IMG/VR virus record: IMGVR_UViG_3300020724_000005 | DNA: 64,000 nt | From: a virus | Reading direction: 5' to 3' (one strand) | Shown here: positions 2,566 to 46,446 of the stretch, piece by piece | How the letters are laid out: each line of letters starts with the position of its first letter | How positions within the stretch are numbered: position 1 is the stretch's first letter | Notes under the pieces: generated by a model | What the model was told of the DNA's origin: nothing | Seen by the model: only the letters and a program-made list of their open reading frames with translations | Databases searched by the model: none | Program-made: the position numbers and the translations under genes

Positions 2566-3381
2566 CTAAAGCTCTGTGCTCAGCCTTCTGAGGAACCTCC
2601 TGTATAGCCCCTCGTCAGTTGACCATGCTTTGATCTTGACCAGCTCAGAGTAAAAACTGTCTCTTGCAGACTCAAGCCTGTCTTTTATCCAAGGTCCTCT
2701 TAGAAAGAGGAAAGGAACTGCCGTGTTCTTGTACTCGTTGTATACCTCATCGTAGCTCTTGGTCTTTATGTCAGAGAGTGCCCTAAACAGCTGGCTTTTG
2801 ACCGCAGCCATAAGCTTCTTGTCCTTGTCTTTCTTTGCAAGCCCAGAGGCTATTGTGTTTATCAGCGTAGAGGTGTGTGCATCGAACTCAGCTGGTGAAT
2901 TTAGATGTGATATGAGGTCCTTTTCGTACTGCTCTATGTCTTCTGGGCTTGCATTCTTGCCTGGCGCTTTCGGTGCTCCAACTCCCAGCTTTGCATCTAG
3001 ATCTGGATCGAACGCTTTAGGATCTATTGCATGTATGAGCTCATGCTCTATGTTCACCGTAAAATCATGCTCGTCTGTAAGCTTTGCAAGGTTTGCCATG
3101 ACAGCCATGTTCTGCTGGTCCATCCTAGCGTATGCTCCATCCTTTGGATCGTTATACAGACCTAAGCTGATCGATGTCAGGTTGCCTCTGCGGTCTTTCA
3201 TGTTGAACATGTTCTTGAAGCTCATAGGAACATATGGATCTTGCTTGTAGCTTTTAGGCGACTTCTTCTTGAGAGAGTCTAGGTTGTTCTCTATGTAGGA
3301 GAACGCAGAACTAGCCTTTGACAGCTGGTCCTGCGGTATCTTTACTATCTTCTCTGTAAGCAGATCTATGAGCTTTATCAT
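2566..3381 (-). CDS. putative zinc metallopeptidase (HExxH) carrying the MIKLIDLL leader
   Basis: 271 aa. The N-terminus is MIKLIDLLTE and there is an HELIH motif (NIEHELIHAIDPK). Confidence 0.55.
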   Translation of the reverse strand: MIKLIDLLTEKIVKIPQDQLSKASSAFSYIENNLDSLKKKSPKSYKQDPYVPMSFKNMFNMKDRRGNLTSISLGLYNDPKDGAYARMDQQNMAVMANLAKLTDEHDFTVNIEHELIHAIDPKAFDPDLDAKLGVGAPKAPGKNASPEDIEQYEKDLISHLNSPAEFDAHTSTLINTIASGLAKKDKDKKLMAAVKSQLFRALSDIKTKSYDEVYNEYKNTAVPFLFLRGPWIKDRLESARDSFYSELVKIKAWSTDEGLYRRFLRRLSTEL

Positions 3382-3386
3382 ATGTT

Positions 3387-3394
3387 ATAAATAT
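3387..3394 (-). promoter_or_regulatory. GATATTTAT(A/T)A-type intergenic motif copy
   Basis: Plus strand reads ATAAATAT followed by C. It lies 5 nt upstream of ATG 3381 and abuts the stop of 3397..4143. Confidence 0.4.
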
Positions 3395-3396
3395 CA

Positions 3397-9407: not shown

Positions 9408-10127
9408 TTATATATTTGGTTTTTTATATTTGCACTTATCAAAATGCCACTGAGTCATTCCGTTATTTCCTCCAATTTTATTACAATGCGGACATTGTAT
9501 TTTTGGATTTTTTATTCCTAATCTATTAGTATTTCCTATTTTAGATATGCTCAATTTTCTTTTATGTTCTTCTGATTTAGATTTTCCCTTAAGAGCTCTG
9601 CTAATATTTGCCTTCTCTAATTCTGATTTTACTCTATTTTTTTGACCTTTAGAAATTGATTCTCTATGTTGTAAAGATAAACATATCCCTAATTTAGATT
9701 TTCTTATATTTAATTTAGTTTCTTCTGATCTTACTTTTCCCGTATTCGATTCTTTCATCTTTTTTTTAGTATCATCAGAAACTAAATGGCCTTTTCTGGA
9801 TAATCTATATAATCGTTTTGTTTCTTCAGAATGTTTAAAACCAAATTGACCTTGTCCACCATCTGTCATATTAACTAAAGGTCCCAATTTAAGATCTGCT
9901 CTTCCATAGAATATAATCCAAAATTTTTCTTTTTCACAGGCTTCTTCCCAAGTTAACCATTCTTCTGACATAATTTCTACTTTATATTCTGTAAGATTAA
10001 TCACATTATTCCAATGAATATTTCTGTTCTTTTTTGAATAAGATCTTTTATAGTTTTTATCTGATCCTATTCCTATATAAAAAACCTCATTCTTGTCTAG
10101 TCTTATATGACGATACACATATGCCAT
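9408..10127 (-). CDS. GIY-YIG homing endonuclease with NUMOD3-like repeats and a C-terminal CPHC zinc finger
   Basis: MAYVYRHIRLDKNEVFYIGIGSD; repeats HSEETKRLY, SDDTKKKMK, SEETKLNIR, SEEHKRKLS; C-terminus CPHCNKIGGNNGMTQWHFDKCKYK. AT-rich. Confidence 0.85.
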   Translation of the reverse strand: MAYVYRHIRLDKNEVFYIGIGSDKNYKRSYSKKNRNIHWNNVINLTEYKVEIMSEEWLTWEEACEKEKFWIIFYGRADLKLGPLVNMTDGGQGQFGFKHSEETKRLYRLSRKGHLVSDDTKKKMKESNTGKVRSEETKLNIRKSKLGICLSLQHRESISKGQKNRVKSELEKANISRALKGKSKSEEHKRKLSISKIGNTNRLGIKNPKIQCPHCNKIGGNNGMTQWHFDKCKYKKPNI

Positions 10128-10137
10128 AAAATAAAAA

Positions 10138-10232
10138 TGGTCCAAAGTGACAAAGAGCCTGCATGCTCTCTATCTCAAAGGACCAATAAGTTCTATTATA
10201 GATAACTCATGCAGGAGCTTCTATCTATAATA
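10138..10232 (-). promoter_or_regulatory. structured HEG leader (copy 1): two hairpins with complementary loops enclosed by a long-range helix
   Basis: Hairpin S1 pairs 10194..10204 with 10222..10232. Its loop CTGCAT is complementary to loop ATGCAG of hairpin 2 (stem 10154..10158 with 10165..10169). The outer helix pairs TGGTCC (10138..10143) with GGACCA (10180..10185). Confidence 0.6.
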
Positions 10233-10237
10233 AATAT
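10230..10237 (-). promoter_or_regulatory. GATATTTAT(A/T)A-type motif copy
   Basis: ATAAATATC overlaps the 5' arm of leader hairpin S1, 102 nt upstream of ATG 10127. Confidence 0.4.
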
Positions 10238-11133
10238 CAGGAAATACTTGCTAAATACTTAAAGTTTGTGTATAGCCACGAAGGTAGGTTTGTGATGCTC
10301 TGTCCCAGTTGATCTTCGTTATACATCTCTGTAAACTCTGTTGGATAGTAGTCCTTCTTTGGGTTGCCCATCATCTGGTCTATCTCCTCTTGTGCCTCTG
10401 CTGGTATGTTAGGCTCGTCTAGGTCCATGAGCTTCTTGTTGATCTCTAGCTGGCTTCTGAAGTCGTAGATCTTTTTGAGCATTGCAACATCGCCGTCCTT
10501 GCACTTCTCTATGACATGCTCTAGACTGATAGTAGCACTTTTTCCTAACTCTGGAAAGTGTTTAAGCAAAGTCTTGATGCCTAATCCCTTTACCCCAGGA
10601 ACGTTGTCTCCTTTGTCGCCAAGCAGCACCTTCTGGGTTAGAAAGTTGTGAGACGTCACTTCGTACTCGCTCAAGACGTCTTTTGGAGAATAGAACTTCT
10701 TCTTTGTAGGTGAGTATATGCTGATCCTGTCCGATGCAAGCTGAAGGTAATCTCGGTCCGAAGACATGATGGTCACCTCTTTTCCTATGCGCTTTGCTAT
10801 GTATCCTATGACATCGTCTGCCTCTATCTTGTCTATCGATAGCAGATCTATGGGAAGACATTTGAGGTAGTCCACGAGCCTCAGAAGCTGGTTCTTGATG
10901 GCATCAGACTCCTCTTCTTGGGAATCGAACATGTCCCAGTTTGTGATTCTCTTTATACCCCTATTTGCTTTGTACTCAGGATAGAGGTAACGCTTATTTG
11001 TTGAGCTACCGCGGCCATCAAATACTACTATGACACGTGTTGGTCTTATCAGTCTCATCCCATATGCCATCGACTTGAGAAACCCAGTTAGAGCTCCTAT
11101 GTGCTGTCCAGCTGGGTTCACGTGCTGGATCAT
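10237..11133 (-). CDS. flap endonuclease / 5'-3' exonuclease, main segment (as listed in the ORF track)
   Basis: VVFDGRGSSTNKRYLYPEYKANR, EADDVIGYIA, SSDRDYLQL, LLGDKGDNVPGVKGLGIKT. The N-terminal DG strand is missing from this ORF and lies upstream, across an in-frame TAA. Confidence 0.85.
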   Translation of the reverse strand: MIQHVNPAGQHIGALTGFLKSMAYGMRLIRPTRVIVVFDGRGSSTNKRYLYPEYKANRGIKRITNWDMFDSQEEESDAIKNQLLRLVDYLKCLPIDLLSIDKIEADDVIGYIAKRIGKEVTIMSSDRDYLQLASDRISIYSPTKKKFYSPKDVLSEYEVTSHNFLTQKVLLGDKGDNVPGVKGLGIKTLLKHFPELGKSATISLEHVIEKCKDGDVAMLKKIYDFRSQLEINKKLMDLDEPNIPAEAQEEIDQMMGNPKKDYYPTEFTEMYNEDQLGQSITNLPSWLYTNFKYLASIS

Positions 11134-11279: not shown

Positions 11280-11843
11280 TTAATTTTTATATTTACAATT
11301 ATCAAAATGCCACTGGATCATATTACTCTTATTTGCTATTTTTTTACAATGCGGACATTGGGCCAAAGGCCTATTTTTAGCAGATTCACTTTGTGCAATT
11401 TTAGTTTTTTCTGATGTTTTTAATTCTTTATTCCACGTATTCATTCCAATGAAAAATGATCCTGAATTTACTTTATGTGGAAATTTTTTATCTTTATTCC
11501 ATGGAATTCTATTTTTAATACTTTCAATATAGCATTGTTTAGCTTCTACTGATATTCTTATACTATGTCTACCTGTATTTTTATCTTTAATGCACATTAA
11601 ATGAAAAGCATATGTTAATTTTTTATTTTCAGGAAAACTTCTATGTAATAACCAGTGCGCTAATATATGCTCTCTAATAGTTAATAAAACTATATTTTTA
11701 TTGTTTGTATTTCTTCTATCACCAATTCCTCCCAAACATATTGGCACTATGTGATGAGACTCGTAATAAACCTCTTTATTTTTTGTTCTTTTCTCCAATT
11801 TACATTTGCAGACTAATCTATTATATATTTTTAAGTAATCCAT
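11280..11843 (-). CDS. HNH homing endonuclease with a C-terminal CPHC zinc finger
   Basis: MDYLKIYNRL...YYESHHIVPICLGG...NIVLLTIREHILAHWLL; C-terminus CPHCKKIANKSNMIQWHFDNCKYKN. I chose ATG 11843 by analogy with the paralogue at 45814. Confidence 0.85.
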   Translation of the reverse strand: MDYLKIYNRLVCKCKLEKRTKNKEVYYESHHIVPICLGGIGDRRNTNNKNIVLLTIREHILAHWLLHRSFPENKKLTYAFHLMCIKDKNTGRHSIRISVEAKQCYIESIKNRIPWNKDKKFPHKVNSGSFFIGMNTWNKELKTSEKTKIAQSESAKNRPLAQCPHCKKIANKSNMIQWHFDNCKYKN

Positions 11844-11852
11844 AAAATAAAA

Positions 11853-11953
11853 TGGACTCATTGAAGTCAAAGGTCGGGCAATGACCAATGATTCTAGAGT
11901 CCAATAAGTTTATTATAGATAGTTAATTGCCCTAACTTTCTATCTATAATAAA
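11853..11953 (-). promoter_or_regulatory. structured HEG leader (copy 2)
   Basis: Hairpin S1 pairs 11909..11922 with 11940..11953 (14 bp). Its loop GGGCAAT is complementary to loop ATTGCCC of hairpin 2 (stem 11872..11875 with 11883..11886). The outer helix pairs TGGACTC (11853..11859) with GAGTCCA (11897..11903). Confidence 0.6.
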
Positions 11954-11956
11954 TAC
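11949..11956 (-). promoter_or_regulatory. variant motif copy (ATAAATAC)
   Basis: It sits in the same position relative to leader hairpin S1 as the copy at 10230, 105 nt upstream of ATG 11843. Confidence 0.3.
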
Positions 11957-11963
11957 TTGATTT

Positions 11964-13046
11964 TTAAGAATCTTCAATATCAAATATATCATTTTTTGAT
12001 GGATCCTCTTCTTCTACAATATCAAATATCTCAGAACCTAGCGCCTTTATCCACTCATGCGAATATTCATTTTTATATTTACTTATCGCTGATGGAGAAT
12101 CATCAATAAAACCATGCACTGTCATTATAACTTTGCCTACAGCTGTAACTCCAGTTATGTGATTTTTATCGCATGAAATTCTAGTTCTCTTAGCAAATTC
12201 CACGTCTTTTCCATTTTTTGTAGCTTTTATTTTATTAGTCCCCGCCTTTGAAATATTCCCGAAAGTGATTACAAGAGTAGAGTCAAACCACATAGTATTA
12301 CCTCCTTTATTTTGTAAAGTTGGTTGTCCCATTGGATTATCTGGTTTTGCTACCCAAACTTTATTTATTGCTACAAGTGTATTGGTGTAGGGTTGGCTCT
12401 CCTTTCTCGACATAATGATACGTTGATTGATGAAGTTGCCAAATTGAGTCGACATAGCACCTGCAGCCCACTCATTATTATTAGTGGATTTTTCTATGCT
12501 CAGACGACAAGGTATAGACCCCACCGAGTCCCACAGAAAGCATATGTCATACGGTAGATTGCCTTTCTTCTGCTCGTCTAAGATGTCTGCCATAAATCCC
12601 GCCACGTCCTCTACGCACTGCATCTTTTCCCTGTCTACGTATATGAAGAAGCCACTGTAATCTACCACTTCTCCTGTTGACTTATCGACGACCTCATCAA
12701 ATTGTAAACCCATTGACCTTGCGTGCTCCCAAGACCATTTCATCTCGGTAACTATAAACACTGGGAGTATGCCCATCTTTTGAGCTTGCACTGCTGCTTC
12801 TAATAGCGCAGTAGTCTTGCCAGTATCTGAGTGTCCTCGTAGTAGAGTGATGTGTCCTATCGGTATGCCAGGGATCTGAAGTGTATCACTGAAAGCCTTG
12901 GAGAGAGGTATCCACCTCGTCTCCTTGAACTTTACAGATGTGCTTGATAGGTTCTTGGACTTCTTGAATTTGTCCAGATTGAATTCGCCTTTGATGGCTG
13001 TAGAGAGAGCCCCATTGAGGCTCTCTTTCTTTTCTGATTTTGCCAT
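11964..13046 (-). CDS. RecA-superfamily recombinase/ATPase (UvsX/RadA-like)
   Basis: Walker A GHSDTGKTT, Walker B-like ICFLWDSVGS, 360 aa. It lies next to the SSB gene. Confidence 0.55.
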   Translation of the reverse strand: MAKSEKKESLNGALSTAIKGEFNLDKFKKSKNLSSTSVKFKETRWIPLSKAFSDTLQIPGIPIGHITLLRGHSDTGKTTALLEAAVQAQKMGILPVFIVTEMKWSWEHARSMGLQFDEVVDKSTGEVVDYSGFFIYVDREKMQCVEDVAGFMADILDEQKKGNLPYDICFLWDSVGSIPCRLSIEKSTNNNEWAAGAMSTQFGNFINQRIIMSRKESQPYTNTLVAINKVWVAKPDNPMGQPTLQNKGGNTMWFDSTLVITFGNISKAGTNKIKATKNGKDVEFAKRTRISCDKNHITGVTAVGKVIMTVHGFIDDSPSAISKYKNEYSHEWIKALGSEIFDIVEEEDPSKNDIFDIEDS

Positions 13047-30033: not shown

Positions 30034-32643
30034 TTAATCTACAAAAGCATATGATATTGTTGCAGGAGCTAATAAAGAGTTCCAGTTGGTCGTTCTTGTT
30101 AAAGTAGGTTTATAGTCCCATATAGGTTGTCCTCCTGAGCTATTGATATCGGTTGCTGTCACAAAAGATACGTTTTGGGTAGCTCCTGGCTGTAGATTAA
30201 ATAATGTTGCAGTTGATGGAGTACTTGCTACTAGTGATATATTAGATGCTGCTGTTCCTCTTAAAATTAAACCACTATTTACAGTATATGTTTTATTAGA
30301 AACTAGAGAATGGGTTGCTCCTGCTGTTGTAGATATTAGATTATATGTACTAAAAGCCGCTGATCCTGTAATGTTAGTAGAAGTATTTAGAGACATTGTA
30401 CCATAACATGTTAAACTTGAAGTATTAATTGTAAATACTGAAGTAGAACCAGTTGTTGTAATACTATATAAACTTAATGAAGAAGAGTTAGCCAATGTTA
30501 AACTACCAGAAACTACTAAATTACTTGTACCATATGAGATACTACCCGTTGTATAAGTTAGTGTTCCTGTTTTAGCTATCGATCCTGATAGTGTTAATGA
30601 ACCTGTAGTATTGATTGTTAAAGCACTAGTTATATTACCTGTTCCACTCCATGTACCTGTACCGGTTAAAGACAATGGAGTAGTTCCTGCAAGAACAGCG
30701 CCTACTGTAAGATTACCTGATATAGTAGATGCAAAGTTACCATTTATGGTTAAGTTCTGAGTAGCTACCGTAAGATTAGTGAAATTGATAGCACTTGGTA
30801 TAGTTAACGTAGTTGCTGTACCTGCTCCAGTATTAGTGATAGTACCAGTGGGATTAAAGAACGTAGACCCACCAAAAGTTGTATTACCTCCTATAGCGAG
30901 GGTTAAAGTACCTGAAATATTTAAGTTTGAAGATAGAGTAAAAGTACCAGCAACAGAAATAGTTAGATTATTTAAAGTTACTGAATTGGTCAGGTTGATG
31001 GTAGATCCCCCAGAAATTATATTTACAGTAGATCCTGTGGTAACTACAGTACCAGCTGTATATGTCAAAGTTCCCGCACCCCAATAAACTGTACCAGAAA
31101 TAGTTAGTGTGCCTGACGTGTTAATGGTTGTATTCAAAAGCACCGCCCCGGTCGTAGTGTGACTCCATGTACCAGTACCGGTAAATATCAAACCAACACC
31201 ATTTGACGAATAAAGTCCAACTGTACTGTTTATAGTTAAATTTCTACCCACATTTATATTAAAACCCGCCCCATTAACAGTGGTGTAATTTGATCCGTTG
31301 GAAGTTAAATCGGTTACATTTATTGTATTAGGTATTGTCAAGATGCCTGATCCTAACACCATGTTTCCAATAGGCTTAAAATTCCCAGCGCCGTTTACCG
31401 AACAGTTATTTCCACCTTGCATAACGGTAAACGTTCCTGCGATCGTAAAAGTAGAAGAACATGTTATAGTTAAAGCACCTGCTCCTGTTTGAGAAGTAAC
31501 ATTATTCCAACTGACGGCACTGGTTGTATTCATTGTACAACTAGAATATAATTTTAAAGTTGATCCTGTTGTAATAACTGTACCAGCAGTATAAATCAAA
31601 GAAGGAGCATAACCAACTGTTCCAAATCCTACAGTACCAGATATAGTTATTGTTCCTGAAGTATTAATAGTAATATTTCCTCCGGCAAAGCCAAAATCAC
31701 CAGTCCAAGTACCGGTTCCTATTAAATTCATATTTGCTGCTAAAAAAACCACCCCTCCTATATTAAGATCACCGGTTAGATTTAAAGTACCAGTTCCACC
31801 TGTAGTTAAACTAGTAGTAGTAATAAGACTTTTTATAGTTGTATTTGCACTTAAATTGACTCCTACTCCAGCAACATTGAATGTCCAATCACCCCAACTC
31901 ATAGAAGCATTTGTAGTATTAATCGTTGATGAGGTGCCTACAAAATTTAATATAGAACCAGTTGTAACTATTGTCCCCGCAGTATAAGTTAAAGTTCTTG
32001 ATGATGAAGTAGAACCAAAATTTACAGTACCAGAAACAGTTATAGTTCCTGCTGAATTGAATACAAGACTTAAACCTAGATTACCACTCCCTGTCCAAGT
32101 ACTATTACCAGCTAAAACAATTGTAGATGCTGCTCCTGGAGTGTTAAAATTTAAGTCAGCATTAACATTAAAAGTTCCAGTTACTGTTAGGTTAAAAGCA
32201 CCTGACATTCTGGTAAGAACACCTACAGTTAAATTATTAACTGAAAAGTTAGATGAAGTTAATGTTTTTATTCCATTACTAGTTGCAAAGGTTAATAACC
32301 CTCCCCAACTCCCCCCTGCTCCCGACGCTAATGTAGTACTCCCAGCAGCTACCAAAGCACTGGATCCTGAGACACTAACAGTTGTAGTTCCTAAAGTAAC
32401 AGTTCCACCAGTAGTTGTAGTAATAGTATTTGACATGGTTATGGTATTAGTATAACCTGTAAAATTTATAGATAAACATACTCCAGCAACATCTACTGTA
32501 CAGTTTCCTGAGTTAGCATCAAATACAGCAGTATCAGCAGTAGTAGGTACTGCCCCACCAGTTCCACCACCTGAACTTAAACTCCAGTTGGTAGATACAC
32601 TCCAGTTTACGTTACCACTATTTCTAAAATAATATGTTGCCAT
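30034..32643 (-). CDS. beta-helix-type tail fibre/adhesin, long paralogue
   Basis: 869 aa, T/G/S/N-rich. The N-terminus is MATYYFRNSGNVNWSVSTNWSLSSGG. It contains four internal modules of about 130-150 aa (GTGTW...TINTSGT(I/L)TISGTV...TYTAGT(V/I)(I/V)TTGS). Confidence 0.6.
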   Translation of the reverse strand: MATYYFRNSGNVNWSVSTNWSLSSGGGTGGAVPTTADTAVFDANSGNCTVDVAGVCLSINFTGYTNTITMSNTITTTTGGTVTLGTTTVSVSGSSALVAAGSTTLASGAGGSWGGLLTFATSNGIKTLTSSNFSVNNLTVGVLTRMSGAFNLTVTGTFNVNADLNFNTPGAASTIVLAGNSTWTGSGNLGLSLVFNSAGTITVSGTVNFGSTSSSRTLTYTAGTIVTTGSILNFVGTSSTINTTNASMSWGDWTFNVAGVGVNLSANTTIKSLITTTSLTTGGTGTLNLTGDLNIGGVVFLAANMNLIGTGTWTGDFGFAGGNITINTSGTITISGTVGFGTVGYAPSLIYTAGTVITTGSTLKLYSSCTMNTTSAVSWNNVTSQTGAGALTITCSSTFTIAGTFTVMQGGNNCSVNGAGNFKPIGNMVLGSGILTIPNTINVTDLTSNGSNYTTVNGAGFNINVGRNLTINSTVGLYSSNGVGLIFTGTGTWSHTTTGAVLLNTTINTSGTLTISGTVYWGAGTLTYTAGTVVTTGSTVNIISGGSTINLTNSVTLNNLTISVAGTFTLSSNLNISGTLTLAIGGNTTFGGSTFFNPTGTITNTGAGTATTLTIPSAINFTNLTVATQNLTINGNFASTISGNLTVGAVLAGTTPLSLTGTGTWSGTGNITSALTINTTGSLTLSGSIAKTGTLTYTTGSISYGTSNLVVSGSLTLANSSSLSLYSITTTGSTSVFTINTSSLTCYGTMSLNTSTNITGSAAFSTYNLISTTAGATHSLVSNKTYTVNSGLILRGTAASNISLVASTPSTATLFNLQPGATQNVSFVTATDINSSGGQPIWDYKPTLTRTTNWNSLLAPATISYAFVD

Positions 32644-32646
32644 TGT

Positions 32647-33408
32647 TTAAAATCCTCCTAAGAAAGTAAATGATGTATTTACTGGAAAAACTGACATATC
32701 TTGCCAGTTTAAAGTATTACTTAATACTCCACTGTATGTCCATATTGTTTGCCCATTGGAGCTGTCTATCCATGTTCCATCTAAAAATCCGTTATCCTGT
32801 GTTCCAGTCAAGGTAAGTATTGCGTATGTTCCTGCAGAAGATGATGTAAGTATTATGTGGGAAGTAGCAGTCCCTGTGGTTGTCATCGCACCTGTTATAG
32901 TATAAGTGTTTCCTGCAACCAATGTATGCGTAAGACCTGCAGTAGTACAAGTAAAATTGTTTGTAGTAAACCCATTAGTACCTGCAAATGTTAGCGCTGC
33001 TGATAAAGTCAAAGTACCTCCTATTGTAAATACAAATGAGTTTATGGTTATGGTTGATGTTGCTGATACTGTAATGGAGTTGGGCCATGTTTTATTATTG
33101 CTTATCCAAGTACTAGAAGCATTAAAGGTTAACCCACTTGCTCCTGATATTGTCATACCTGAAACTAATGTAATATTTCCTGATATCGTAAGTCCATTGG
33201 TCATTGTCAATGTACCAGTATAGCCAGTACAAGTAAGAGATTTACAAACAGAAGCTGCGTCTACTGTACATCCACCTGAGTTGTTATCTAAAATAGCATC
33301 ATCTGTAGCAGTTGGCACAGCACCGTTGGCCAGACCTCCTGAAGAAGTTGACCAGCTGGATGCTGCACTCCAGTTACCGTTAGAATTTCTAAAGTAATAA
33401 GTTGCCAT
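32647..33408 (-). CDS. beta-helix-type tail fibre/adhesin, short paralogue
   Basis: 253 aa. Its N-terminus (MATYYFRNSNGNWSAASSWSTSSGG) and C-terminus match those of 30034..32643. Confidence 0.6.
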   Translation of the reverse strand: MATYYFRNSNGNWSAASSWSTSSGGLANGAVPTATDDAILDNNSGGCTVDAASVCKSLTCTGYTGTLTMTNGLTISGNITLVSGMTISGASGLTFNASSTWISNNKTWPNSITVSATSTITINSFVFTIGGTLTLSAALTFAGTNGFTTNNFTCTTAGLTHTLVAGNTYTITGAMTTTGTATSHIILTSSSAGTYAILTLTGTQDNGFLDGTWIDSSNGQTIWTYSGVLSNTLNWQDMSVFPVNTSFTFLGGF

Positions 33409-41837: not shown

Positions 41838-42155
41838 CTAAAGAGTAGACTTGAAAATGTAAACTTTTCCTTCAAGGTCTAATATATCTTTTATAGCAAG
41901 GTTCAGTTCTTTTGTTATTTTTTGGGATAGATCTGCTATTCCTTTGTTAGAAGAGTGCTTGTATATATCTAAATTCTTTTTGACGTCTCTAAGAGATTTT
42001 GCAAACTTTTTAAAGTCTGCTACATTGTATACTTGGGTCTTTACACTTCCAGTTTCTGGGTCTATCGTCTCTGGCCCTTGTAAGAATCCCTTCTTCATCA
42101 ATTTATCGACGTCTATTATTTCCTCGTCTTCAATTAAAAGATCTATCAGTTTCAT
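41838..42155 (-). CDS. leader-bearing small protein (MKLIDLLIE...)
   Basis: I moved the start to ATG 42155 because the track's N-terminal extension runs through the capsid-gene terminator. The N-terminus is MKLIDLLIED. Confidence 0.55.
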   Translation of the reverse strand: MKLIDLLIEDEEIIDVDKLMKKGFLQGPETIDPETGSVKTQVYNVADFKKFAKSLRDVKKNLDIYKHSSNKGIADLSQKITKELNLAIKDILDLEGKVYIFKSTL

Positions 42156-42159
42156 GCTT

Positions 42160-42167
42160 ATAAATAT
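42160..42167 (-). promoter_or_regulatory. motif copy
   Basis: ATAAATAT, 4 nt upstream of ATG 42155. Confidence 0.3.
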
Positions 42168-42183
42168 AGAATACTTTTTGATG

Positions 42184-42213
42184 AAAAACAAAAAAGCCCG
42201 GTAAAAACCGGGC
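42184..42213 (-). terminator. rho-independent terminator after the major capsid gene
   Basis: GCCCGGT (42196..42202) pairs with ACCGGGC (42207..42213) around a 4-nt loop. On the minus strand the stem is followed by TTTTTTGTTTTT. Confidence 0.75.
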
Positions 42214-42242
42214 CTTTCTTTTATTATTGTCTTAGATTAAAC

Positions 42243-43993: not shown

Positions 43994-45529
43994 TTAGATG
44001 CCTGCTAGTTTCTGCATTCTTGCTATGAAAGGATCAGACTCCAGTGTGTTTCCTTTTGGAGCTCCGCCTGTTGGCTTAGATGCAAATCCTGAGAAGGATT
44101 CTTTTAATTGTTTCTTAGGAGCAGCAGTTATTGATTCGCTGATGAACTTAAATGTGTTCTTCACTTCTTTAACCGACGTCGCTCTATCGAATGCATTCAG
44201 GACCTTTACTTTTTGTGCTTCAGTAAGAGATTTAGATTTGAAGATCTTGTTAACATAAAGAAGCTTAGCGTTCAGAAGATTGATCTCATTCAGCTCTTTC
44301 TGCATCAGTTTGATTGCTTTCTTAGCCTCTTCGAGTTCTTTCTTTTCTGCCATCTTTTTCTTCTCTTCCATCTTCTTCTTCTCGTGCATTTTCTTTTTGG
44401 CTTCTTCCATGTGATGCTTAGCTTCGTCCATTTCGTCTTCTTCTTCATCATCCTCTTCGCCTTCGTCTTCGAGTTCAGCTAGAATCTCATCAAGAGAAAC
44501 TTCATCATCACCAGCTTCTGCGCCTTCTCCACCTTCGTGGCCAGCCATTGCAGCTTTGATTGCGTTTACAAGATCTCCAAGAGTTACGTCAACAACTTTG
44601 GTGTCTTCTTCAGACTCTTTGCCGTCTTCTCCCTCTTCTTCATCTTCTTCTTCGTCGTCTTCTTCTTTGGCTTCTTCCATTTCGTCGTAATGTTCGTCTA
44701 GCTCTTCTTCATGTTTGGCTTTCTTTTTCTTTTTAGCCTCGTCCATGTGGTGTTTAGCTTCGTCCATTTCGTCTTCTTCTTCATCGTCTTCTTCATGGTG
44801 AGCTTCGTCCATTTCTTCGAGTTCGTCTAGGATCTCATCAAGATACTTTTCATCAAGATTACCAGGATCTGCTTCGTCCATTTCGTCATAGCCTTCTTCC
44901 ATGTCTTCAATAGCGCCTTTATGAGCTGGAGCATGTTTGTAACCGGCTTCTTTTGAGCGATGTGCTTTATTTGTATGCACAATGTGCTCTGCCTCGTCCA
45001 TCTCTTCTTCAGATTCGTCCATTGATAGAATATCTTCTATACTCTCAGTCTCTGGATCATTTTCTTCTGAGTGTATGTGAGTTGCGCCCATTTTTTTAGC
45101 GGCCTTTGCAATCATCTTCCAGAATTTATCAACATCTTCACCAGTACGTTCTACAACTTTAGCAGTTTTACCGTTAAATTCAACTGTAGCTTCATGTTCA
45201 CCAGAAGGTGATGTATATACTTCTGCTGTTGTTGCTTGATCACCATCTTCTCCTTCGTCCATTTCATCATACTCATCTAAATCTTCGATCGCGCCTTTAT
45301 GAGCTGGAGCATGTTTGTAACCGGCTTCATGACTACGAGCTGATTTCTTTGTGTGAACGATGTGCTCTGCTTCGTCCATTTCTTCTTCTTCAGATTCTAC
45401 GATGTGTTTCTTCAACATCGCTTTGATCTTTGGCTCGAATGCTTCTTGAATCGCAGCTTTAGCGTTGGCCATGGCGCTTTCACGAACTGCTTTTGCATCA
45501 GCAACAGCCTGAGTGTAAATACTTTCCAT
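43994..45529 (-). CDS. prohead scaffold/core protein (gp22-like), highly acidic and repetitive
   Basis: 511 aa, Glu/Asp/Lys/His-rich, with EMDEA repeated six times. It lies between the protease and the capsid gene. Confidence 0.7.
   Translation of the reverse strand: MESIYTQAVADAKAVRESAMANAKAAIQEAFEPKIKAMLKKHIVESEEEEMDEAEHIVHTKKSARSHEAGYKHAPAHKGAIEDLDEYDEMDEGEDGDQATTAEVYTSPSGEHEATVEFNGKTAKVVERTGEDVDKFWKMIAKAAKKMGATHIHSEENDPETESIEDILSMDESEEEMDEAEHIVHTNKAHRSKEAGYKHAPAHKGAIEDMEEGYDEMDEADPGNLDEKYLDEILDELEEMDEAHHEEDDEEEDEMDEAKHHMDEAKKKKKAKHEEELDEHYDEMEEAKEEDDEEEDEEEGEDGKESEEDTKVVDVTLGDLVNAIKAAMAGHEGGEGAEAGDDEVSLDEILAELEDEGEEDDEEEDEMDEAKHHMEEAKKKMHEKKKMEEKKKMAEKKELEEAKKAIKLMQKELNEINLLNAKLLYVNKIFKSKSLTEAQKVKVLNAFDRATSVKEVKNTFKFISESITAAPKKQLKESFSGFASKPTGGAPKGNTLESDPFIARMQKLAGI
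44873..45013 (-). repeat. scaffold internal repeat, copy 2
   Basis: SEEEMDEAEHIVHTNKAHRSKEAGYKHAPAHKGAIEDMEEGYDEMDE. Confidence 0.8.
45254..45394 (-). repeat. scaffold internal repeat, copy 1
   Basis: SEEEEMDEAEHIVHTKKSARSHEAGYKHAPAHKGAIEDLDEYDEMDE. Confidence 0.8.
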
Positions 45530-45628
45530 ACTTTTTTAAAGTTTTTTGGATCTTAATCGTTCATTGAGGATGTGGAACGATATGGGAAATTAGTGTAATA
45601 GCGTCATATTGGGAAGACGCATCTGTTG

Positions 45629-45636
45629 ATAAATAT
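45629..45636 (-). promoter_or_regulatory. motif copy (divergent pair with 45709..45716)
   Basis: ATAAATAT, 99 nt upstream of the scaffold ATG 45529. Confidence 0.35.
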
Positions 45637-45708
45637 ACAACTTTTGACGAGAATCGAGTTTAAACAAAAAAAATATTACAACTTAGAGTTTAAATTTGCT
45701 ATTGTCTG

Positions 45709-45716
45709 ATATTTAT
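45709..45716 (+). promoter_or_regulatory. GATATTTAT(A/T)A-type motif copy in plus orientation
   Basis: GATATTTATAA read on the plus strand, 97 nt upstream of the only plus-strand gene (ATG 45814). Confidence 0.45.
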
Positions 45717-45720
45717 AATA

Positions 45721-45802
45721 AATTGCTACTGGTACTAGTAATTAACAAAGATATTGAGTCATCATAGATGGAGTTGTACCAGAACTCTGTTTATTTTGAC
45801 TC
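45721..45802 (+). promoter_or_regulatory. structured HEG leader (copy 3, plus strand)
   Basis: Hairpin S1 pairs AATTGCTA with TAGTAATT (45721..45728 with 45736..45743) around loop CTGGTAC. Hairpin 2 pairs GAGTT with AACTC (45771..45775 with 45783..45787) around loop GTACCAG. The outer helix pairs GAGTCA (45756..45761) with TGACTC (45797..45802). Confidence 0.6.
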
Positions 45803-45813
45803 ACTTTTATTTT

Positions 45814-46446
45814 ATGGATCATCTCAAAATTTACAATAGGATCATTGCAAAGGCTAAATTAGAAGGGAGAAAAAAACTTTCTAGAGATCATAATGATTAT
45901 GTCTACTACGAAGCTCATCATATCATTCCAAGATGTTTAGGAGGTATGAATGATAAAACTAATATAGTACTACTTACAGCTAGAGAGCATTTTATCGTCC
46001 ATTGGTTATTATATGAAACTGATAATGGAAATGTAAAATTAGCTTTGGCATTTTTTATGATGTGTAATACTAAAGATCACAATCAATTAAGATACATTCC
46101 AAGTTCTAGAATTATAGAATATTCAAAAAATCAACACTCTAAGTATCACCACTCAAAACTACCTAAATTTAAAAAAATAAATTCTGATTTAAGAAAAGGA
46201 AAATCTATAGTAGAACAGTTTGGAAAGCAAAAAGCTTTAGAATGTTCAATTAAAAAATCTAATTCTTTAAAACTGAGCTATCTAAATGACCCCACACTAT
46301 CAAAAAGAAAAAGTGATTCTATGAAAGGAAAAAATAAAATTGTTCGTAAATTTACATGCCCACATTGCGGAAAAATAGGAGGAATTTCTACTATGAAACA
46401 GAAACATCTTCCTATATGTAAATCAGCTCAAACAGCAAATCCCTGA
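45814..46446 (+). CDS. HNH homing endonuclease with a C-terminal CPHC zinc finger
   Basis: MDHLKIYNRIIAKAKLEGRKK...YYEAHHIIPRCLGG...NIVLLTAREHFIVHWLL; C-terminus CPHCGKIGGISTMKQKHLPICK. The track ORF starts at TTG 45754; I prefer ATG 45814. Confidence 0.85.
   Translation: MDHLKIYNRIIAKAKLEGRKKLSRDHNDYVYYEAHHIIPRCLGGMNDKTNIVLLTAREHFIVHWLLYETDNGNVKLALAFFMMCNTKDHNQLRYIPSSRIIEYSKNQHSKYHHSKLPKFKKINSDLRKGKSIVEQFGKQKALECSIKKSNSLKLSYLNDPTLSKRKSDSMKGKNKIVRKFTCPHCGKIGGISTMKQKHLPICKSAQTANP

Follow-up and report, generated by a model that had tools for sequence, protein, structure and literature searches.

A leader with complementary, covarying hairpin loops ahead of free-standing homing endonuclease genes in a T4-like myovirus

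Results

Analysis of the 64-kb window (the whole stretch of viral DNA analysed here) showed that an HNH homing endonuclease gene is directly preceded by a structured RNA leader of about 105 bases, within a module of about 118 nt, in which the loops of two hairpins are complementary to each other. The leader recurs ahead of other endonuclease genes, folds on the gene-sense strand, retains its loop pairing while the loop sequences change, and is shared between otherwise unrelated sites as a module. We regard it as about an even bet that this is the cis-acting leader of a portable expression cassette that restricts the output of free-standing homing endonucleases, by way of a putative promoter, a predicted transcription start just beyond it, attenuation and damped translation.

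Structure of leader copy 3

The leader of this gene (copy 3) and its parts were located at the following positions.

45708-45813, plus strand: leader copy 3, from motif to U tract, directly ahead of the HNH AUG at 45814
45708-45718, plus strand: late-promoter-like motif GATATTTATAA, a putative promoter
45721-45743, plus strand: hairpin S1, AAUUGCUA (45721-45728) paired with UAGUAAUU (45736-45743) around loop L1, CUGGUAC (45729-45735)
45744-45754, plus strand: 11-nt single-stranded linker AACAAAGAUAU, rich in A and with no pairs in the centroid fold
45755-45803, plus strand: composite second stem-loop (H3, a 2x2 internal loop and hairpin 2), from RNAfold
45755-45761 with 45797-45803, plus strand: H3, 7 bp in its RNAfold extent
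45764-45775 with 45783-45794, plus strand: hairpin 2, 12 bp, around loop L2, GUACCAG (45776-45782)
45804-45813, plus strand: U-rich tract CUUUUAUUUU, filling the gap from the H3 stem to the AUG
45814-46446, plus strand: HNH gene (T4 Mob-like, free-standing homing endonuclease), 210 aa, behind copy 3

The plus strand from 45708 to 45816 reads GATATTTATAA-TA-AATTGCTA[CTGGTAC]TAGTAATT-AACAAAGATAT-TGAGTCA-TC-ATAGATGGAGTT[GTACCAG]AACTCTGTTTAT-TT-TGACTCA-CTTTTATTTT-ATG, with the two loops in single brackets. The first-pass annotation had described S1 as 8 bp, including one G-U pair, around the loop CUGGUAC, and this was borne out. The same was true of its hairpin 2 (GAGUU 45771-45775, GUACCAG 45776-45782 and AACUC 45783-45787) and of H3, whose paired arms GAGUCA (45756-45761) and UGACUC (45797-45802) flank 35 nt, with 11 nt left before the AUG. 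In RNAfold both helices grew, to 12 bp for hairpin 2 and 7 bp for H3, and the distance to the AUG became 10 nt. The MFE and centroid predictions for copy 3 were the same structure, at -27.2 kcal/mol and z = -4.2 relative to dinucleotide shuffles, and the antisense strand was at background level (z = -0.96). The description of the two loops as kissing loops also held: L1 and L2 of copy 3 are exact reverse complements, and their complementarity is kept across at least 23 loop sequences in about 70 relatives, including orthologues at the same locus. A scan of the window for hairpin pairs with stems of at least 4 bp and perfectly complementary 7-nt loops, 20-80 nt apart, recovered copies 2 and 3 alone, and simulated 64-kb sequences contained a mean of 0.23 such pairs.

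Leader copies and downstream genes in the window

A covariance model built from the relatives found exactly three leader sites in the 64 kb. Copy 3 was the sole copy on the plus strand, as had been claimed, and the most divergent of the three (63.7 bits, 45698-45816, plus strand). The other two copies and the genes behind them were as follows.

11841-11967, minus strand: leader copy 2, L1 GGGCAAU (11932-11926), L2 AUUGCCC (11882-11876); covariance model 125.8 bits; fold z = -4.6
11843..11280, minus strand: HNH paralogue behind copy 2 (profile search with the copy-3 HNH, E-value 3e-27)
10125-10248, minus strand: leader copy 1, L1 CUGCAU (10214-10209), L2 AUGCAG (10164-10159); covariance model 89.8 bits; fold z = -5.1
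10127..9408, minus strand: GIY-YIG/NUMOD3 gene behind copy 1 (NUMOD3 match)

All three copies folded in the gene sense, with z between -4.2 and -5.1. A plain repeat of primary sequence was rejected as the basis of the family: elsewhere in the window, BLAST with the leader picked up nothing beyond the promoter motif and the U tract, which indicates that the copies are related by structure.

The ORF behind copy 3 had been called a homing endonuclease, and it proved to be a Mob-like HNH endonuclease, with a weak Pfam HNH match and about 40% identity to homing endonucleases annotated in T4-like phages of Klebsiella. It sits antisense between the prohead protease and scaffold genes. A search of the viral contigs found no close relatives of this gene; protein search with contig look-up found HNH orthologues with 53-79% amino acid identity at the same locus (L194-L199). 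A 5'-3' exonuclease gene lies downstream of copy 2.

Leader family and covariation

Viral contigs and the window together supplied 35 distinct leaders of the family, metagenomes supplied 37, and orthologues at the same locus added 4; the sets of 35 and 37 overlap in part. A pattern of motif, U tract and ATG gave about 40 true members among 75 matches in the viral contigs; a second pattern there, the S1 base alone, gave mostly chance matches and added at least six leaders. The metagenome pattern, which fixed the motif and S1 base alone, gave 50 loci, and orthologues of the copy-3 HNH gene at the protease/scaffold site came from five further contigs. MAFFT put the stems out of register, and RNAalifold run on that alignment recovered the loop-loop helix alone; alignments fitted to a covariance model, and others checked by hand, were therefore used.

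Loop complementarity was perfect Watson-Crick over 6-9 nt (nearly always 7) in 35/35 and 37/37 leaders, the 37 metagenome leaders having been chosen on the motif and S1 base only and not on the loops. At least 23 different loop pairs were present among the complete leaders tested, and every complete leader tested had contiguous Watson-Crick loops kept by covariation. Non-cognate loop combinations mostly matched over 4-5 nt. The loops were the most variable part of the leader, their sole constant base being an A at position 6.

The 35-leader alignment had 88.9% of its cells paired, against 74.0% when shuffled and 33-43% when the partner was slid by 1-3 columns. Changes on both sides were found in 29 pairs, the kissing helix covaried at 6 of its 7 positions, and no shuffle equalled the observed value on any measure. 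The corresponding figures for the five-orthologue alignment were 92.9%, 76.1% and 32-45%, with 20 pairs changed on both sides and a kissing helix that was 100% paired and covaried at 3 of 7 positions. The S1 stem was 97.5% paired in the five orthologues, with compensatory changes in 4 of 8 pairs, while the second stem-loop had compensatory changes in 13 of 19 pairs. Covariation was present in all leader stems. G-U pairs outnumbered A-C oppositions in the stems by 72 to 24 in the family and by 16 to 1 in the orthologues, and this excess on the gene-sense strand indicates that the folded species is the gene-sense RNA. An A-rich linker pattern ending in UAUUG was conserved in both leader subfamilies. 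Every ORF behind a leader was HNH, HNH_3 or GIY-YIG/NUMOD, a few of them truncated.

Rfam 15 showed no match at the gathering threshold across the window, and a permissive search of the leaders gave noise (E-values of at least 1). No DNA match to the copy 3 region or the leader was found among deposited phage genomes, no tRNA or tmRNA was found in the window, and a full-text literature search combining kissing loop, homing endonuclease and phage returned nothing relevant. The covarying 7-bp loop-loop contact is thus new relative to the RNA family library and the literature searched, and the leader adds a compact RNA structure with very strong covariation support and no Rfam match.

Promoter-like motif and transcription start

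The motif GATATTTATAA was found at 23 sites in the window at no more than one mismatch, against 2.5 expected. It lay on the gene strand at 20 of the 23, 2-30 nt upstream of structural-gene ATGs, which agrees with the earlier statement that motif and leader follow gene orientation. Example sites are the following.

3385-3395, minus strand: GATATTTATAA
14419-14429, minus strand: GATATTTATAA
27215-27225, minus strand: GATATTTATAA
42158-42168, minus strand: GATATTTATAA
45708-45718, plus strand: GATATTTATAA, copy 3

Flavobacterium phage immuto has the same 10-mer upstream of the gene that comes next after its major capsid gene (L200 8646-8655). We infer that GATATTTATAA is a late promoter, and it is offered as the candidate late-promoter motif of this phage clade. 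The T4 late-promoter consensus, TATAAATA, occurs within the reverse complement of the motif; with respect to its gene, the element therefore has the opposite orientation to that in T4. A sigma-70 scan of the plus strand of the leader found no -35/-10 promoter.

Two genes with the common N-terminus M(I)KLIDLL start 2-3 nt past the motif (3379-3395 and 42153-42168, both minus strand). These point to near-leaderless late mRNAs and to a transcription start about 1-2 nt past the motif. Since S1 begins 0-2 nt after the motif in both leader subfamilies, such a start would make S1 the 5'-terminal hairpin of the transcript in both.

The motif adjoins S1, overlaps the extended S1 base in the main class of leaders and lies outside H3. 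In main-class leaders the S1 base reaches into the motif as a 14-bp inverted repeat, TTTATTATAGATAG / CTATCTATAATAAA, found in the window at 11945-11958 / 11908-11921 (minus strand) and likewise in most main-class leaders. The copy-3 subfamily uses another register, GAUAUUU with AGAUAUU, which could pair the motif in the same way. In a read-through RNA, the 14-bp repeat would pair the motif itself. A switch in which read-through RNA, with the motif, frees the start region while promoter-initiated RNA masks it was considered and rejected as a general mechanism; the modelled accessibility of the two RNAs showed no consistent difference over 35 leaders.

Terminator-like hairpin and start region

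In the leader family, H3 has the base GGNCC / GGNCC with U4-5 A U4 immediately after it, an arrangement in which a stable GC-based hairpin stands directly before a U tract, as in a terminator. The U-rich tract adjoins the H3 stem in all leaders, including those not chosen for a U tract, and in L199 it keeps its place beside the stem though the distance to the AUG differs. The AUG always lies 0-4 nt past the U tract. An A-rich tract precedes the second stem-loop, a feature shared with the canonical terminator behind the capsid gene. When the window was crudely scanned for hairpins with a U tract, the three leaders ranked among the strongest sites (-20 to -24 kcal/mol), and the canonical terminator scored -17.8. 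The canonical terminators of this phage are short, whereas the second hairpin is long and interrupted, and a simple terminator scan did not call it. The canonical intrinsic terminator after the major capsid gene, AAAGAAAGGCCCGGUUUUUACCGGGCUUUUUUGUUUUU, lies at 42176-42215 on the minus strand, is probably bidirectional and is directly followed by the next copy of the motif.

The start regions of 49 other minus-strand genes contained 45-64% A at -14..-2 and about 10% G, without a Shine-Dalgarno signal, whereas those of the endonuclease leaders were U-rich. Accessibility of the start region (-12..+3) was 0.37-0.48 unpaired for the leaders against a median of 0.60 for the other genes. The start codon and the 10 nt before it were not in a strong helix, and the AUG region was unpaired. 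Sequestration of the start site of the I-TevI type was therefore rejected, H3 ending 10-11 nt before the AUG and no Shine-Dalgarno sequence being present.

A portable cassette

Leaders with the same loops shared 94-99% identity, whereas the 150 nt ahead of them and the first 300 nt of their ORFs agreed only at the level of unrelated sequence (about 55-64% in a global alignment). Near-identical leaders precede unrelated HNH and GIY-YIG genes at unrelated sites, which identifies the leader as a portable cassette. The module thus extends from the motif to the ATG and is moved, or converted, as a unit. Most copies have a stop codon some 10 nt ahead of the motif. Three copies were found in the 64-kb window and at least four in one 169-kb contig.

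One 169-kb contig (ERZ869921 NODE-8) carried an identical leader before an HNH gene and before a GIY-YIG gene, which points to leader duplication or gene conversion. Identical leaders with the loops CUGUGAA/UUCACAG were recorded at the following sites, one before an HNH gene and one before a GIY-YIG gene.

L206:43-168: identical leader
L227:8810-8935: identical leader

Identical loops in two cassettes of one genome argue against strict loop orthogonality within a genome. The idea that selection favours differing loops within one genome was likewise weakened by the identical-loop cassettes of ERZ869921 NODE-8.

In L222:3286-3383 (minus strand) S1 has been precisely excised, TATTTATTATA being joined to ATAATAAAC, with L2, H3, the U tract and the HNH ORF kept. 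Intact leaders with matching loops were also seen before truncated endonuclease ORFs of 9 and 42 codons (L004:6141-6266 and L006:7010-7134), and in L021, L050 and L075; the leader can therefore outlast its gene.

Proposed mechanism

Homing endonucleases must be expressed, and only sparingly. In the reading that we favour, a cis-acting leader that restricts endonuclease output, the transcript would start 1-2 nt past the motif, so that S1 would stand at the 5' end, followed by the A-rich linker, the long interrupted hairpin, the U tract and the AUG. The second hairpin with the U tract could serve as a leaky terminator or attenuator, and the structured, U-rich, non-consensus start region could make translation initiation poor. 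Pairing of L1 with L2 may then set how readily the fold of the second hairpin forms, in either direction.

Several points weigh against this explanation. The start codon lies outside any strong helix, the modelled promoter-initiated and read-through RNAs do not differ consistently, and the second hairpin departs from the canonical terminators of this phage. A strong terminator would be polar on the exonuclease gene after copy 2, which argues against attenuation. The S1-deleted leader of L222 keeps its endonuclease gene. This reading also leaves unexplained why a loop-loop contact would be needed over a plain hairpin.

The geometry of the contact bears on how it could form. An A-form helix rises about 2.8 Å per bp, and a single strand spans at most 6-7 Å per nt. 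On these values, a coaxial kiss with H3 closed would span about 100-120 Å. The linker is only 9-12 nt across the leaders, and by this geometry, a further point against the explanation, an intramolecular coaxial kiss with H3 closed looks strained. Possible ways out are competition between the kiss and H3, sharp bending, or a contact between two separate molecules, and covariation alone cannot separate loop pairing within one RNA from pairing between RNAs.

A further reading, which we think quite unlikely, is that the matching loops are self-addresses, through which leader RNAs of one cassette, or a released S1 and its own mRNA, meet by two strictly Watson-Crick kisses; in another form of it the kiss would oppose H3 closure as a tension-type antiterminator. 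If the self-address reading were true, a selfish nuclease would be controlled by an RNA-level device that senses transcript or genome copy number or that provides specificity.

Alternative explanations

The first alternative, which we hold to be unlikely as a full account, is a recombination cassette like PeSL, in which the DNA is a homology patch for swapping endonuclease ORFs and the RNA fold is secondary. The contrast between leaders (94-99% identical) and flanks (about 55-64%), the identical leader before an HNH and a GIY-YIG gene of one 169-kb genome, and a PeSL-like span from near the upstream stop codon to the ATG all fit it. Recombination needs identity and not pairing, however, and the at least 23 matched loop pairs, the compensatory stem changes and the excess of G-U pairs in the sense strand stay unexplained. 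Recombination is compatible with restriction of expression, and the two do not form an either/or choice.

It is improbable that the leader is a positive element, in which a kiss-locked 5' hairpin guards the mRNA from decay at its 5' end or presents the U-rich segment to the ribosome. The position of S1, 0-2 nt past the motif, would place it at the very 5' end if transcription starts as implied by the genes at 3381 and 42155, and the AUG region is unpaired. The U-rich start region nevertheless differs from the A-rich starts of the other genes of this phage, and selfish nucleases of T4-type phages are typically down-regulated (PMC2988022).

Similarly improbable in our view is a separate small RNA of about 105 nt (or a released S1) whose loops act between molecules, either as a symmetric dimer held by two kisses or as a c4-like antisense RNA with S1 repressing its own mRNA. 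A promoter, a 5' hairpin, a conserved single-stranded linker and a terminator-like hairpin are typical of small RNAs, the loop-loop helix is strictly Watson-Crick, and the linker of 9-12 nt would make a symmetric dimer sterically easier than a monomeric coaxial kiss. The constant placement of the AUG, 0-4 nt past the U tract, argues instead for a 5' UTR and against a separate gene. Linker targets in the window were at the level of chance (13 matches at no more than 3 mismatches against 10.9 expected), and the two identical-loop cassettes in one genome show no strict orthogonality.

An element acting at the DNA level or without function (an operator, a cruciform or chance palindromes in AT-rich DNA) would account for the 14-bp inverted repeat TTTATTATAGATAG / CTATCTATAATAAA at the main-class S1 base and motif, and it is highly improbable given the strand asymmetry of the G-U pairs, the background antisense fold (z = -0.96), loops too variable to be the site of one common protein, and only 0.23 such hairpin pairs per simulated 64 kb.

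Comparison with known systems

In T4-type phages, expression of endonuclease genes is kept low by late promoters, hairpins, intrinsic terminators and RNase E processing, and a terminator inside mobE stops about 30% of transcripts (PMC2988022, PMC3014915). In the I-TevI and mobE paradigm, the late promoter lies inside the 5' strand of the inhibitory structure, and late transcripts escape it (PMC2988022, PMC3014915). The controls compared here were those of I-TevI/II/III, segB and Aeh1 mobE, the T4 mobE/segF terminators, and seg43(25) of Aeromonas phage 25. The leader resembles them in being a structured RNA directly before a homing endonuclease ORF, with a putative late-type promoter, in a T4-like phage, and limited nuclease expression would be the common aim. 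As in seg43(25), a very stable hairpin stops just short of the start region and leaves it unsequestered, and the gene behind copy 3 is inserted antisense among head genes, like T4 segD. It differs from the T4-family controls in several respects: its start site is not sequestered and has no Shine-Dalgarno sequence, its motif precedes S1 and seems to lie outside any inhibitory hairpin arm, it has two hairpins with a covarying 7-bp loop-loop contact, and one conserved leader module is common to several unrelated endonuclease families.

PeSL cassettes of T4-type phages combine a sigma-70-type early promoter with a single G/C-rich stem-loop (PMC2839356, PMC4122927). The leader shares with them a composite of putative promoter and stem-loop that occupies the space between the stop codon of one gene and the start codon of the next and recurs within the genome, and it shares the near-identity between unrelated flanks that indicates recombination. 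Unlike PeSL, it has no sigma-70 promoter, its motif being a single late-type 11-mer common to structural genes; it consists of two AT-rich, covarying, kissing hairpins; and its cargo is always an endonuclease gene. The comparison suggests that the leader would act like the hairpin and terminator controls of the T4 family and spread like PeSL, while lacking defining features of both.

ColE1 RNA I/RNA II and TAR/TAR* form kissing complexes through fully complementary 6-7-nt loops. The leader is like these pairs in that entire loops of 6-7 nt are Watson-Crick complementary. Those pairs come from opposite strands or separate molecules, whereas the leader loops lie on one transcript, about 47-50 nt apart. 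In the loop-docking riboswitches (guanidine-II or mini-ykkC, purine, lysine and cobalamin), conserved loops form the ligand pocket. The leader likewise has two adjacent 5' UTR hairpins, whose loops would dock, before a start site or terminator; its loops are its most variable part, so that no ligand site is evident and it does not belong with the loop-docking riboswitches. Phages P1 and P7 make an antisense RNA, c4, that resembles the leader in having short stretches complementary to each other within a single transcript, where a change in one stretch is matched in its partner between relatives. The resemblance would end with the processing of c4 and with its target, the ribosome-binding region of icd/ant.

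To our knowledge, next to nothing is known of the control of free-standing homing endonucleases outside the coliphage T4 group. The presence of one leader ahead of unrelated nuclease families indicates that the regulatory part is itself mobile. With at least 23 interchangeable 7-bp loop pairs on a constant scaffold, the family is well suited to testing how kissing contacts adjust termination or translation among hosts without Shine-Dalgarno initiation, and the loop-pair series is a possible source of orthogonal RNA parts.

Phage context and surrounding genes

The 64 kb of the window make up the structural region of a T4-like myovirus, whose major capsid protein shares 52% identity with the one from Flavobacterium phage vB_FspM_immuto; the nearest cultured relative of this uncultured clade is a Flavobacterium phage. 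The phage of the window was also located on a 157-kb contig of JGI sample 3300021135 and among ENA and Logan assemblies. The A-rich start regions without Shine-Dalgarno sequences fit a Bacteroidota-type host. The protease-scaffold interval of immuto contained no endonuclease gene and no leader.

At the copy 3 locus, the 3' end of the HNH gene (plus strand) overlaps the 3' end of the prohead protease gene (minus strand) by 24 nt (46423-46446) in a convergent arrangement, which was also seen in the orthologous contigs L194-L198. Late head-gene transcripts would consequently be antisense to the endonuclease mRNA and its leader. On the minus strand, GTATATTTATCAA (45626-45642) departs from the motif at 2 positions and stands about 100 nt ahead of the scaffold ATG (45529); it may be a promoter for the scaffold and capsid genes, undisturbed by the cassette inserted next to it. 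The scaffold-like protein (43994-45529, minus strand, 511 aa) is extremely acidic and internally repetitive, with repeated blocks of the types EEMDEAEHIVHT.. and DEEEDEMDEAKHHM...

The heptamer GTACCAG was also found about 10 times on the plus strand between 30842 and 33218, within large tail-fibre-like genes (30034..33408). On the coding strand of these genes it reads CTGGTAC, the heptamer of loop L1 of copy 3. The tail-fibre heptamer probably reflects repeated Ser/Ala-Gly-Thr codons, and its match to L1 is most likely a coincidence.
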